A stretch of DNA of 64,000 nt from Nannocystales bacterium (GCA_050633305.1 JBOEGF010000002.1:217624-281623); one strand, 5' to 3'. Positions 4,225 through 21,570 are shown, counted from the first letter of the stretch. Translations and numbers: made by a program. Notes: a model not told the origin generated them from the sequence alone.

Positions 4225-5433
4225 TCAGTCGGCGAGGTGGTCGCGCACGTACGCGGAGAACCTCTCCCTCACCGTCGCATCGCTGGGGCCAAAGCCCCGT
4301 GCGCTGTAGGCGTGAGAGCCATACTTGTCCTTGGGTCGGGCGGCGAGATGCCGCTCCATTCCCTCGACCATCTCCTCGGAGACCGTCAACTCGAGGTGAG
4401 CGTAGATCCGCCGCACGCAGTCGATCGGGTTGGCGACCAAGTCGGCATACCGCACGTCAACCCAACCCTTCGAGCGCGCGCGCGCCAGCTCGGACGTTTC
4501 CACGAGGTGCTCGAGATGCTCGAGGTTGCTCGTGCACATTCGCTCGATGTCCAAGCCCTCGGAGACCAACGAGTGAAGCGAGAGCACCAGGCTGTTGGCG
4601 CTTGGAACCACGGACACCGGGTCTCGATGCGTCTGCACGAGAAGCGCGTTCGGGACGGCCTGCAACAGAGCTTGCACGGCGGCGGTATGAGCAGGTGCCT
4701 TCAACACCAACCGCTGGGTAGGGGTCTCGCGTTGGAACCACTGCAGGTACCAGCGGTAGAGCTCGTAGGATCCGTGCAAGTCCTGCGCTCTGAGCCACTG
4801 CAGGTAGCCGTGCACCGGCGCAAAAACCCAGAACGAAGCGCTCACGAGCGAGGGGTCCAGCAGCAGCACACACTCCTCGGGGTTGTCCGCGTCGAAATGG
4901 TGCTTGGCGTCGAGCGTTTGGTCCATCCATCTCGCTCGCGCGAGGGCCTTTGCAGTGCGGCGCCGCCGATGGTCTGGGCCGGGCCCCGCGATCGGTTCCA
5001 TCAGCTCCCACAGCCGAAGCGGTCGAGCCCCCGGGTCGCACGCGAGCAGGTGATGCAGAAACGTGGTGCCCGAGCGGGGAAGGCCCATGACAATGATCGG
5101 TGGTACCAAGTCGACCTGCTCGACTTCGGGTTGAGCCGCCCGGGTCTGCACGTACCGCAGTCGGTTCGTCAGACTGCGCACGATGTAGTCCCGAAACGCG
5201 ATTCGGCCCGCCAAGGACAGCCCGGCATCCACCTCGACCGACCGACATAGCGTCTCGAGCCCCTCGGAGAACTGCGTCTGTTCGCCGAAGTCGTGGAGGC
5301 CAGATGCCCGAACCGCTCGCTCCCGCAGCGCCGAGGCCTCGAGCGGCACGATCCGCGCTGCCGGCCTGCGACCGGCCCAGTTCAGCGCGCGGATCGGTAA
5401 CGGAAGCTTGTGAGGCGTTGGAGTCGGATTCAT
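4225..5433 (-). CDS. Sulfotransferase (Sulfotransfer_3 family)
   Basis: PAPS-binding loop IVMGLPRSGTTFLH, LVLKAPAH, VQTHRDP, VRYADLVANP. ATG at 5433. Confidence 0.9.
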   Translation of the reverse strand: MNPTPTPHKLPLPIRALNWAGRRPAARIVPLEASALRERAVRASGLHDFGEQTQFSEGLETLCRSVEVDAGLSLAGRIAFRDYIVRSLTNRLRYVQTRAAQPEVEQVDLVPPIIVMGLPRSGTTFLHHLLACDPGARPLRLWELMEPIAGPGPDHRRRRTAKALARARWMDQTLDAKHHFDADNPEECVLLLDPSLVSASFWVFAPVHGYLQWLRAQDLHGSYELYRWYLQWFQRETPTQRLVLKAPAHTAAVQALLQAVPNALLVQTHRDPVSVVPSANSLVLSLHSLVSEGLDIERMCTSNLEHLEHLVETSELARARSKGWVDVRYADLVANPIDCVRRIYAHLELTVSEEMVEGMERHLAARPKDKYGSHAYSARGFGPSDATVRERFSAYVRDHLAD

Positions 5434-5441
5434 GGGACGGC

Positions 5442-6071
5442 TCAACCAAACGGGGGCCACAGGGCGGCCGAAGCGAACACCGGGATGTTCAGGAGTTCGG
5501 CCTGCCAAGGCCGCAGGACGAGTACGCCGAACGCCAACACGGCCGCGTAGGCAAACTGAGTGCCCGCGGCTCCCGGCACGCCCGCGAACAACGAGGACAC
5601 GCCCAAGAACACGGCGGAGGCGGCGATCATCGTCCCCATCGTGATGTCGGCACGGACCCGCGAAAACGACAGCACGGCGGCTGCGATCCCCGTGCAGCCC
5701 AATGCGCCCAGCGTCGCGAGCGTACCGTCGGCTGCCAACGCGACGTCGGCCAACACGAATCGCATCCAGGACACGAGCGCGAACACGACCACCGCGGCCG
5801 ACCCAAGGGCGTTGCGCCGAAAGTAGACCACCTCGAGGTCCCGACTCGCCGCGCTACGAGTTCCATTCCTTGCGAGCAAACACTGGCCCAGCGCCTCGAG
5901 GGCAAACAAGGCCAGCAGCGGTGCCGACCCGCTGCCCCTCACCATCAACACCGCCACGGCGCAGAACACAACCGCCGAGACGTATTGAGCCTGATACGTG
6001 CGACGCTTTCCGACCTGTCCGCAGGAGCGCCGGTGCACGCTGTCGCTCAACTGCTCAATCAGCCTGCGCAC
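5442..6071 (-). CDS. Polytopic membrane protein, unknown function
   Basis: About 6 hydrophobic segments; overlaps the P450 stop and ends just before the sulfotransferase start. Confidence 0.65.
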   Translation of the reverse strand: MRRLIEQLSDSVHRRSCGQVGKRRTYQAQYVSAVVFCAVAVLMVRGSGSAPLLALFALEALGQCLLARNGTRSAASRDLEVVYFRRNALGSAAVVVFALVSWMRFVLADVALAADGTLATLGALGCTGIAAAVLSFSRVRADITMGTMIAASAVFLGVSSLFAGVPGAAGTQFAYAAVLAFGVLVLRPWQAELLNIPVFASAALWPPFG

Positions 6072-19920: not shown

Positions 19921-21234
19921 TCATCGTGTCTCCGGGTAGCCGGATCCAGTGCGTGCCGACGAAGAAGCGTAGCCCGCAGCCCCGGACTCCCGACCAACGG
20001 CGGGCTTGAGAACACCCGCTCGGATCAGCCGCCGCACGAGGACTCGCTTCGATTTTGGCGTGACCGCGCCGGGTAGTTCTCCGACAGAAAACGGGCCCGA
20101 CGCATCAGCGATGAAACGAAGGGCCGAACTGACCTGCCGTGGAGCCCGGATGGTGGCCCCGGGCTCGCTCCCCGGCCACCGCAGAAGAACGTGGTCCCCG
20201 GTCGACTCCAAGGCGCACTGCACCCCCGCACGCTTGATCACCCGCGTCTCATCGTCCACCGTCGTCTCTTGTGCCATCGCGGTGTCGAGCTGGCGATCGG
20301 ACAACGCGACGTCGGCGATCGTGCTTCGTTCATAGAGGGCAGCGAGCGCATCGGGGTCGAGCACGTCTGCACAGCGACGAAGGAGTCGCTCCGCTTGCTC
20401 GGCCCGTCCCTTGGGGTCGAGCGACACGGAGCGACGGAGCTCGGGGTCCGACTGCGCAACCTCGCGCACCGTTTCCGCGAGCAACTCATGCCACTGCAAA
20501 CGATGCACACCGATCGTCAGATGGAGCGACTGCACCCCTTCGGTGCGCACCTCATGCACCGCACCGCGCGGCAAGTAGAGCATGTCCCCGGGCGTGAGCA
20601 GGTGGTCCGCCGTTGCCTCTTGCGTCCCCTTCGACTGCTCATACGTCGTCTCTCGCGGACGCATGGGCAACTGTTCGGCCTGGCCGAAGAGCCTCCAACG
20701 CTTGCGGCCCTCAACCTGCAGGATAAAGACATCCATGTAGTCCCAGTGGCGGCCAAGGCCTTGGGCGTGCTTGGGCGTGAGGTACAGCCCAATGTCCACG
20801 CGCGCGCGAAAGGCCTGTGCCAAGTCCCGGGCCAGGCGCCCCAACGGCCGAAACTGTGTATCGACCGCATACGCAGCCGCGGTGTCTCCGCTCAGGTGTC
20901 GCTCGCGAACCCAGCTCGCGATCGCGCCGTCGCGTTGCCGACGGCCGAAGCCCGGCGTGGCTCGGAACAGAGGGGGGGGGATCCGCTCTCCGTTCCGGAA
21001 GATCCCGTAGCTCTCGGCGTCGCTGAAGAATCCCCGCGCCAGAAGGTCCTCCACGTCGTCGAGGCTGACCAGTCCCGCGAATCGGTCCGCTGCGCCCGCC
21101 GAGTGCAGCGGCTGCTTCTCGAGGTGAGTCTCGACAAACGACTCTACGGAGAGCGGAGCGAGCAATTCTTCAGGGGTTAGCGTGGCGCGAGGAGACATTG
21201 GCGGAAGGGCTTCCTTGGGGAACGAGTCAAACAA
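19921..21234 (-). CDS. JmjC/Cupin_4 2-oxoglutarate-Fe(II) oxygenase (YcfD/NO66-like)
   Basis: LYLTPKHAQGLGRHWDYMDVFILQVEGRKRWRL (HxD), LTPGDMLYLPRGAVHEV (distal His), SLHLTIG, and a C-terminal winged-helix-like segment FSVGELPG...LVRRLIRAGVL. Alternative ATG at 21198. Confidence 0.9.
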   Translation of the reverse strand: MFDSFPKEALPPMSPRATLTPEELLAPLSVESFVETHLEKQPLHSAGAADRFAGLVSLDDVEDLLARGFFSDAESYGIFRNGERIPPPLFRATPGFGRRQRDGAIASWVRERHLSGDTAAAYAVDTQFRPLGRLARDLAQAFRARVDIGLYLTPKHAQGLGRHWDYMDVFILQVEGRKRWRLFGQAEQLPMRPRETTYEQSKGTQEATADHLLTPGDMLYLPRGAVHEVRTEGVQSLHLTIGVHRLQWHELLAETVREVAQSDPELRRSVSLDPKGRAEQAERLLRRCADVLDPDALAALYERSTIADVALSDRQLDTAMAQETTVDDETRVIKRAGVQCALESTGDHVLLRWPGSEPGATIRAPRQVSSALRFIADASGPFSVGELPGAVTPKSKRVLVRRLIRAGVLKPAVGRESGAAGYASSSARTGSGYPETR

Positions 21235-21284
21235 GTGCGTGGCGGTCGCGGGACCGCCACGACACGAGAGGAGGGATCCCGCCT

Positions 21285-21482
21285 CTAAATGTGCAGGGGG
21301 TTGCCGTCCCAGTCGTGCACCGACAGAGGACCCGGGAGACGGACTCTGCCCGGAACGATCGGCGTGGTTCCAGCCGAGGCACCGCCTACCGCCGATTCCA
21401 GCATGTCCTCGGTAAGCTCGAAGAGCCCCTGTTCGTTGCTATCGCCACCAGAGGGGGTCGTGTCATTACGTTTCTTCTTCAT
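21285..21482 (-). CDS. Putative RiPP precursor with double-glycine-type leader
   Basis: 65 aa; leader ends FELTEDMLESAVGG; core ASAGTTPIVPGRVRLPGPLSVHDWDGNPLHI; 50 bp upstream of the JmjC gene on the same strand. Confidence 0.75.
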   Translation of the reverse strand: MKKKRNDTTPSGGDSNEQGLFELTEDMLESAVGGASAGTTPIVPGRVRLPGPLSVHDWDGNPLHI

Positions 21483-21556
21483 CGGTTCTGTAGAGTCACC
21501 ACTCGATCGATTGGATCACGACAAAGCTCAAAAAACGTTGGGATTAGAGAGCCCAG

Positions 21557-21570
21557 CCCCCCCCCCCCCC
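21557..21570. repeat. C14 homopolymer
   Basis: gcccagCCCCCCCCCCCCCCatttc, about 75 bp upstream of the precursor ATG. Confidence 0.85.

Follow-up and report, generated by a model that had tools for sequence, protein, structure and literature searches.

What does the gene for a short peptide with a double-glycine leader do directly upstream of the gene for a JmjC oxygenase? The question is raised by a 64,000-nt stretch of DNA from a Nannocystales bacterium (GCA_050633305.1 JBOEGF010000002.1:217624-281623), referred to below as the window, in which an open reading frame (ORF) of 65 residues is followed by a co-oriented gene for an Fe(II)/2-oxoglutarate (2OG) oxygenase. A reading of the window from its sequence only (the sequence-only reading) had proposed these two genes as a candidate new system for a ribosomally made and post-translationally modified peptide (RiPP). 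The precursor-oxygenase pair is real, conserved and previously unannotated, and it co-occurs in a few uncultured myxobacteria. The best reading, to which we attach moderate confidence, is a one-enzyme RiPP pathway in which the winged helix of the oxygenase would read an L(X)4L leader and its catalytic domain would beta-hydroxylate His, Trp or Asp in the peptide core.

Conservation of the peptide and its pairing with the oxygenase

The 65-residue ORF is present as the sequence-only reading described it, with the leader ELTEDMLESAVGG and a 31-residue core that match the sequences quoted there. A profile built from three peptides retrieved seven proteins among 89 candidates, and these seven constitute the peptide family. 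Conservation is concentrated in two blocks, a leader box with the consensus F-x-L-T-x-x-M-L-x-x-x-x-G-G, which is a hydrophobic box ending in Gly-Gly as in double-glycine leaders, and a C-terminal core motif with the consensus V-H-x-W-D-G-x-x-x-H-I-stop; the remainder of the peptide drifts. The residues invariant in all seven peptides are Phe21, Leu23, Thr24, Met27, Leu28, Gly33 and Gly34 in the leader box, Pro44, and Val55, His56, Trp58, Asp59, Gly60, His64 and Ile65 in the core motif. Mean pairwise identity reaches 0.77 in the leader box (residues 21–34) and 0.70 in residues 53–65, compared with 0.17 for the N-terminus and 0.27 for the Pro-rich linker (residues 35–52), a two-block pattern that looks typical of a precursor peptide. 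At the three loci with DNA available, the codon differences in the leader box comprise 15 synonymous and 10 non-synonymous changes, 22 of the 32 altered bases being in third positions, and the stop codon of the gene alternates between TAG and TAA.

The family is narrow. Among 1.84 billion representatives, a word-free profile search recovered only four of its peptides, and the core pattern was found in 400 genomes of the class only in the three known carriers, with no occurrence of the core DNA pattern in viral contigs. The full core motif is present once in the genome of the window (G000), in the peptide itself. Reads from two DNA sequencing runs left the greater part of the precursor gene uncovered. 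The peptide matches no Pfam family over the cut-off, gives weak matches only in NCBIfam and finds no counterpart among PDB sequences; the best ESM Atlas comparison, at 0.89, is a lead only, and one row, at 0.87, is a type-A lantibiotic.

The seven peptides correspond one-to-one to a clade of seven oxygenases. The enzyme of the window has six relatives at 57–81% BLAST identity, the next best lying at no more than 37% (best 8000 candidates scored); when aligned, the seven clade enzymes are 56–79% identical and other homologues are at most 35% identical. The claim of a conserved unit was borne out at all three loci available as DNA, namely the window, L013 in genome G046 and L014 in genome G047, where the peptide gene lies directly upstream of the oxygenase gene. 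The other four pairs are presumably adjacent as well, judging from the one-to-one equal lengths of the source sequence records that bear the peptides and the enzymes.

In a set of 72 genomes of the order, peptide and close enzyme occur together in those three, the close enzyme is never found without the peptide, and all six congeners of G000 that were searched have neither. An enzyme profile run against 401 genomes of the phylum found no close orthologue beyond G000 in those searched, and a metagenome scan yielded eight loci, none of them close (27–36%). Of 300 segments of 4.2 kb taken at random from G000, 9 contain a leader-like short ORF, compared with 3/3 clade loci. Since the peptide is also conserved with the enzyme, the pairing exceeds chance. 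The genome-neighbourhood search that had been proposed as a check thus gives an upstream peptide beside every close homologue with DNA (3/3), and a Gly-Gly (GG)-leader ORF within about 1.5 kb of distant ROX homologues at 4 of 21 loci, one of them probably spurious.

No neighbouring gene is common to the window, L013 and L014 loci, and the conserved unit is therefore two genes. As the sequence-only reading had stated, no maturase or C39 transporter adjoins them: the 46 window ORFs scanned contain no match to the C39 (PF03412), LanB/C/M, YcaO, radical SAM or ATP-grasp families, and a C39 transporter is likewise absent among the ORFs scanned around the G047 locus and the three L013 neighbours scanned. 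A P450 gene (6058–7548) and a sulfotransferase gene (4228–5508) lie more than 12 kb from the cassette and were not seen beside the two homologous loci.

The oxygenase, its active site and its winged helix

The downstream ORF encodes a JmjC_2 protein (PF08007, E 2.4e-30). The Met encoded at 21198 lines up in all seven close homologues and gives an enzyme of 425 residues and an intergenic spacer of 86 bp; the 50-bp gap given earlier holds for the alternative TTG start at 21234. The intact HxD...H triad is confirmed, with His151, Asp153 and His215, together with the 2OG-binding Lys166, invariant in 85 aligned homologues (picked by coverage from 120 listed). The protein combines the JmjC domain with a helical dimerisation region and a C-terminal winged helix, the organization of the ROX family, and among PDB sequences it matches MINA and NO66 best and YcfD less well. 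An AlphaFold2 model calculated from the homologue alignment has a predicted local distance difference test (pLDDT) value of 90, and its full-length fold aligns to NO66 with a Z of 31.3 (root mean square deviation 4.2, 383 residues), to MINA with 27.1 and to YcfD with 20.1.

Grouping with the housekeeping enzyme YcfD had been named as an outcome that would speak against the proposal. In a quick tree of 60 rows (the seven clade enzymes, every second of the other 78 homologues and 14 locus proteins trimmed to the C-terminal 430 residues), the clade instead forms its own long branch apart from YcfD with a Shimodaira-Hasegawa-like approximate likelihood ratio (SH-aLRT) value of 100, in a placement that long-branch warnings leave unsure. 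Identity to Escherichia coli RoxA is 35% over only 106 residues, and this figure and the occurrence in 3/72 genomes do not fit YcfD/RoxA orthology.

Four positions set all seven clade enzymes apart from nearly all of the 78 other homologues: Gly137 (Asn in 77 of the 78), Tyr110 and Asp135 (both mostly Gln) and Met155 (His in 75). The active site is rewired in this clade only, and the enzyme is specialised. With NO66 numbering anchored on the L299C/C300S entry, positions 108, 110, 137, 139 and 230 correspond to NO66 R297, L299, N326, Y328 and S421, and only the Tyr is kept. One of the three substrate contacts described for NO66, R297, Y328 and S421 (PMC6006756), is therefore retained, as Tyr139, the others being Ala or Val at 108 and Gly at 230. 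The S421-to-Gly exchange was considered as a mark of the clade and rejected, as Gly is also found in 77/78 distant homologues. The idea that Gly137 tracks cores ending in WDG was not supported by L048 (L048:1-3200, G447:C111), where a GG precursor with a long leader and a core ending in W-D-G-x is followed by a ROX enzyme with the family Asn and by a second JmjC-like gene.

The C-terminal winged-helix-like region noticed earlier is a ROX-type winged helix, since the nearest ESM Atlas clusters of residues 312–402 carry PF20514 (WHD_ROXA); the fold search with the whole model is dominated by the JmjC domain. DSSP assigns strands to residues 329–333, 336–340 and 350–353 and helices to 354–365 and 381–393, with a three-residue helical turn between the helices. 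Three antiparallel strands followed by three helices is the element order of a RiPP recognition element (RRE), a domain that takes up its leader as an additional strand of the sheet. Between strands 2 and 3, an insertion of four residues is present in 7/7 clade enzymes and 0/78 others. Within the clade, strands 2–3 are more conserved than the catalytic core (0.73 vs 0.69), an order that is inverted in two control groups (0.57 vs 0.70 and 0.46 vs 0.59).

A complex prediction for enzyme and peptide scores 0.54 against 0.02 for the best control, with a partner pLDDT of 46–49 and no contacts in the output. The mark used, contacts agreeing in at least 55% and a partner pLDDT of at least 45, is reached by 116/157 solved complexes and 2/215 mismatches. 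Because scores of 0.60 or below occur in only 18/157 solved complexes, along with both mismatches that passed, the prediction gives weak support to binding. The proposal that the winged helix acts as leader reader retains the RRE element order and the complex prediction in its favour, and is tempered by the weakness of the latter and by a fold that is general to ROX enzymes.

The proposed pathway and its alternatives

The coordinates of the cassette are collected in Table 1. The promoter-like arrangement in front of the precursor gene, TGATCC, 16–17 nt, CTCTAC and then 7–8 nt to the ATG, is present in the window, L013 and L014. TGATCC-N16/17-CTCTA occurs 11 times in G000, compared with about 1.2 per control spacing, and an ATG or GTG lies 7–10 nt downstream at 7/11 sites, compared with 2/22 at control spacings; at the same distance after any CTCTA in the genome the figure is 480/4271. 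In five related genomes, a start codon follows 7–10 nt downstream at only 7/30 sites sampled from 60 listed. Six other G000 ORFs behind the motif look exported or lipoprotein-like as judged by eye. The motif may be a promoter of the extracytoplasmic function (ECF) type that yields a leaderless mRNA. Its -35 hexamer is identical to that of the RpoE/ChrR-type ECF consensus described as TGATCC-N16-CGTA (PMC5507510); the -10 element of the cassette is CTCTAC and so departs from that consensus. A sigma-70 promoter scan returned none. As a general mark of leader-like ORFs the motif was discarded, 0/9 other leader-like ORFs having the strict pattern upstream.

Table 1. Positions of the cassette features in the window.
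Feature	Coordinates	Strand	Description
Promoter-like element, ECF type	21490..21518	-	TGATCC (21518-21513), 17-nt spacer, CTCTAC (21495-21490), 7 nt before precursor ATG
Precursor peptide gene P0002	21285..21482	-	65 aa; ORF and seven-member family
Conserved leader box	21381..21422	-	Residues 21-34; L23-(X)4-L28 and double-Gly site G33-G34; 7/14 columns invariant in seven peptides
Conserved core motif	21288..21320	-	Residues 55-65; V-H-x-W-D-G-[NH]-x-x-H-I followed by the stop codon; putative site of modification; seven-peptide alignment
Intergenic stem-loop	21238..21261	-	U-rich tail; terminator-like match, 10 bp
Oxygenase gene P0001	19921..21198	-	ROX-type JmjC Fe(II)/2OG oxygenase, 425 aa; PF08007; alternative TTG start 21234
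JmjC catalytic domain	20482..20826	-	Residues 125-239, with H151/D153/H215, K166, Y139 and clade-specific G137
C-terminal winged-helix domain	20002..20253	-	About residues 316-399; RRE-like element order; 4-residue clade-specific insertion

Elsewhere, TGATCC-N16/17-CTCTA occurs in G046 as back-to-back pairs at three places (contigs C499, C623 and C729) and, at C1359:4225-4252 (L089), immediately ahead of the start codon ATG of a further gene for a ROX-type oxygenase; the motif may mark an undescribed ECF regulon. In the window, a run of 14 C (21557–21570) just upstream of the motif was unseen in the stretches read of two homologous loci.

The spacer between the two genes folds more stably than expected in the window (z -3.3), L014 (-2.8) and L013 (-2.4), and all three contain a hairpin of 10–13 bp whose sequence is not shared. 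Terminator-like sites taken alone are weak evidence, with 2 found and 1.3 expected in shuffles. Hairpins 3' of precursor genes are common in RiPP operons, and this stem-loop probably sets the level of the precursor mRNA above that of the enzyme mRNA.

According to the favoured one-enzyme pathway, the ECF-type promoter would drive a leaderless precursor transcript, and the stem-loop 3' of the precursor would keep the oxygenase at a lower level. The C-terminal winged helix, acting as an RRE, would bind the L(X)4L box of the leader, while the variable Pro-rich linker of about 15–22 residues would give the invariant C-terminal motif access to the Fe/2OG site. One or more core residues would then be beta-hydroxylated, each with a gain of 16 Da. 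The leader would be cut after Gly-Gly and the core exported in trans by a C39 ABC transporter of the genome; C39 domains are found elsewhere in G000 (five with the Cys, His and Asp motifs), G046 (ten matches) and G047 (three). The product is likely a secreted signal or a metal-binding peptide.

The candidate target residues can be narrowed within this pathway. Among those listed by the sequence-only reading, His, Trp and Asp are invariant in the core motif; Arg and Pro lie outside its invariant residues, and Asn varies with His. The terminal His had been singled out by the likeness of GNPLHI to GNHQHI, the NO66 site in Rpl8, and this argument does not hold. The Rpl8 site is described as Asn215-His216-Gln217-His218-Ile219, and NO66 as needing N-H-x-H and modifying the first His, His216 (PMC4556315). 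In the Rpl8 register, the modified position of GNPLHI is Pro (Trp in four relatives) and NHxH occurs in 0/7 peptides; because the terminal His aligns to the unmodified His218, the resemblance does not single it out. His56, with an aromatic residue two positions on, would fit the NO66 spacing better. If the mechanism is as proposed, a histidine, His56 or His64, is the first choice at a little short of an even chance, and His56 is preferred since V-H-x-W resembles the NHxH spacing of a target His with an aromatic residue at +2. Trp58 is a tentative second choice and would have a direct precedent in MppG, an Fe/2OG hydroxylase of the Moorena producens mpp cluster; Asp59 is a weaker third, and any other residue is very unlikely.

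Several points weigh against the one-enzyme pathway. The support for hydroxylation is computational, and only 3/7 pairs have been seen adjacent in DNA. The sample of pairs is small and related; the correlation of enzyme and peptide distances is mixed (Pearson 0.79, 33/5040 permutations; Spearman 0.30, 480/5040), and linkage by itself would account for it. At the three DNA loci, the core block has 6 synonymous and 12 non-synonymous codon differences, with base changes evenly spread. The leader matches TIGR01847 weakly (best E 0.086, 3/7 peptides), the enzyme has no match to PF05402, and no exporter or protease adjoins the cassette. All ROX enzymes, YcfD, NO66 and MINA among them, have the winged helix, so its presence alone is no evidence of RRE function; the descriptions in PMC6182338 and PMC6006756 also present it as a shared domain, and the former calls its function unclear. 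MppG (bioRxiv 10.64898/2026.10.04.756588) and BipG (PMC12707348) are described as requiring prior modification of their substrates by other enzymes, so better-documented cases exist than that of a lone oxygenase working on a linear peptide.

Of the alternatives, the most probable keeps the same pair and alters the chemistry: the class-defining product would come from desaturation to dehydro-Trp or dehydro-His, from a cross-link such as His-Trp, or from oxidative cleavage of the backbone. We regard this as unlikely. In a single-enzyme pathway the defining feature has to come from the one enzyme present, the invariant His56 and Trp58 stand two residues apart, and the pocket is rewired; moreover, the beta-hydroxy-Trp made by MppG is described as dehydrating readily (bioRxiv 10.64898/2026.10.04.756588), and 2OG-dependent HEXXH enzymes as cleaving the backbone oxidatively (PMC12636437). 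The characterised JmjC/ROX relatives, NO66, BipG, CzlI and PhaI, nevertheless all hydroxylate. It is a slim prospect that the oxygenase alone hydroxylates His56, Asp59 and His64 processively and thereby makes a metal chelator, the ROX winged helix serving as a genuine RRE that binds the leader. A ligand set of beta-hydroxy-His and beta-hydroxy-Asp occurs in non-ribosomal siderophores, and the lack of any match to the TonB-dependent receptor family near the cassette counts against the chelator. If true, it would amount to a one-enzyme RiPP class and a tested function for the winged helix of NO66, MINA and YcfD.

It is improbable that the cassette is a satellite, in which a distant maturase modifies the precursor first and the JmjC enzyme only tailors the product. 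The genome does hold several RiPP clusters with LanB/LanC, ATP-grasp and other 2OG-oxygenase genes, as well as orphan GG-leader ORFs; MppG is reported to turn over less than 10% of a linear substrate (bioRxiv 10.64898/2026.10.04.756588), and BipG to need ornithine (Orn) made by another enzyme (PMC12707348). However, the core of the seven peptides is free of Cys and has no invariant Ser, Thr, Lys or Glu, and the cassette, present in 3/72 genomes, has no common partner gene nearby.

Still more improbable is a YcfD-like hydroxylase of a ribosomal or other cellular protein, the peptide being separate or merely co-regulated. The closest structures are ribosomal oxygenases, G000 keeps the uL16 RMGKGKG region, and in the five genomes searched no YcfD match is closer than this enzyme. 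Against this stand the short stretch of identity to RoxA and the long, if unsurely placed, branch of the clade, as well as an occurrence unlike that of a housekeeping gene, with the enzyme absent from all the congeneric genomes searched, never seen without the peptide and sharing its genome with a single copy of the full core motif; bacterial uL2 here is also without NHxH. Very improbable, finally, is a cis-regulatory role of the small ORF as a ribosome-arrest or attenuator peptide acting on the oxygenase gene via the hairpin found in 3/3 spacers: the invariant residues do cluster just before the stop codon, as they do in arrest peptides, but a second conserved block of double-Gly type lies 25–34 residues upstream, like the leaders in the clusters of this genome that contain a peptidase-containing ABC transporter (PCAT), and the promoter motif elsewhere precedes ORFs that by eye look exported or lipoprotein-like.

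Other RiPP-like settings were seen alongside the cassette. On the same contig of G000, outside the window, an orphan 69-residue GG-leader ORF (C2:326337-326546, + strand) has a core with repeated G-C-F-P-P-V-G units, and the starts of ORFs near it, which were not scanned against Pfam, reveal no maturase; elsewhere in G000, another orphan ORF of 58 residues (C38:118907-119083, - strand) has a GG leader and an Ala/Pro-rich core with one Cys. Two G000 clusters lie next to each other at C10:588253-604961 (L055, L056). One is a graspetide-like set of repeat-core precursor, ATP-grasp ligase and C39 transporter; the other combines a GG-leader precursor, LanC-like and LanB-like genes and a C39 transporter of its own. 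C39-transporter clusters at C14:311900-317000 (L057) and C39:22800-30300 (L058, on a contig named C39) each include a small 2OG-Fe(II) oxygenase (PF13640); L057 has a divergent Cys-rich leader-like ORF, and L058 has TGATCC-N17-CTCTAC upstream, along with two genes that match no family over the cut-off.

Within the same family, distant ROX homologues stand beside GG-leader ORFs at L009:1252-1431 and at L011:2744-2929, the latter followed by TfuA, beside a leader-like ORF with Thr/Glu repeats at L010:2881-3102 and next to a Trp halogenase at L005:548-3318. Directly upstream of distant ROX homologues from two different families, ORFs (L008:2387-2650 and L043:609-1157) have a twin-Arg-like signal, a Cys and repeated D-S-D...D-P units, and are possible Asp-rich exported substrates.

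Comparison with known systems

The description as a new system was overstated at the level of kind, since PF08007/JmjC hydroxylases are already characterised RiPP tailoring enzymes, and a leader-dependent hydroxylase with a C-terminal RRE is also known. What is new is this core, the stand-alone design and the rewired active site. No publication on this core or on the two-gene unit was found in open-licence PMC and bioRxiv, with queries that did not include the core motif. The surprise is limited by the published precedents and by the narrow range of seven sequences. For studying how a ROX-type enzyme treats a substrate that is itself genetically encoded, the cassette is close to the simplest system conceivable, with an enzyme of 425 residues, a peptide of 65, seven natural pairs, an invariant region of 11 residues and pocket changes specific to the clade. 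It would reveal whether the winged helix that it shares with NO66, MINA53 and YcfD serves to dock peptides, and could bring a new residue specificity to the peptide hydroxylases.

As far as the published descriptions go, the characterised JmjC/PF08007 RiPP hydroxylases and MppG all act in multi-enzyme clusters (PMC8784127, PMC12707348, PMC11575548, bioRxiv 10.64898/2026.10.04.756588). Compared by description, MppG is alike in being an Fe/2OG hydroxylase with a His/Asp/His triad and a C-terminal RRE, in its dependence on the leader via L(X)4L and in beta-hydroxylating a residue of the core, a Trp (bioRxiv 10.64898/2026.10.04.756588). It differs in its long Nif11 leader, its lanthionine-cyclised core of seven residues, its multi-enzyme cluster and its triad spacing (141/143/229, compared with 151/153/215 in the cassette enzyme). 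PhaI of the phaeornamide (selidamide) cluster shares PF08007, a leader ending in Gly-Gly and hydroxylation, and differs in its NHLP leader, its ornithine target made by an arginase and a cluster with LanM and GNAT (PMC8784127). BipG, BpmG and PbsQ of biphenomycin (PMC12707348, PMC12257519) are likewise JmjC 2OG oxygenases that hydroxylate a RiPP precursor, and CzlI of curacozole is a YxbC-like JmjC 2OG hydroxylase whose gene adjoins its precursor gene (PMC11575548). By contrast with the cassette enzyme, the biphenomycin and curacozole enzymes are described as tailoring within multi-enzyme clusters, on Orn and Phe. Bacterial PF08007-RRE fusions have been noted in "RiPP-like genomic contexts", in an account whose relevant part names no specific precursor family or chemistry (PMC12710340).

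Leaders of the double-Gly type cleaved by PCATs have a hydrophobic L-x4-L-x-x-x-x-G-G box like that of the cassette, which is without a PCAT and would rely on export in trans. The ribosomal oxygenases NO66/RIOX1, MINA53/RIOX2 and YcfD/RoxA share with the cassette enzyme the three-domain architecture, the Fe and 2OG ligands and the Tyr equivalent to NO66 Y328; relative to NO66, the equivalents of R297, N326 and S421 are Ala or Val at 108, Gly137 and Gly230. Unlike these oxygenases, the cassette enzyme is patchily distributed and is tied to a small precursor gene.

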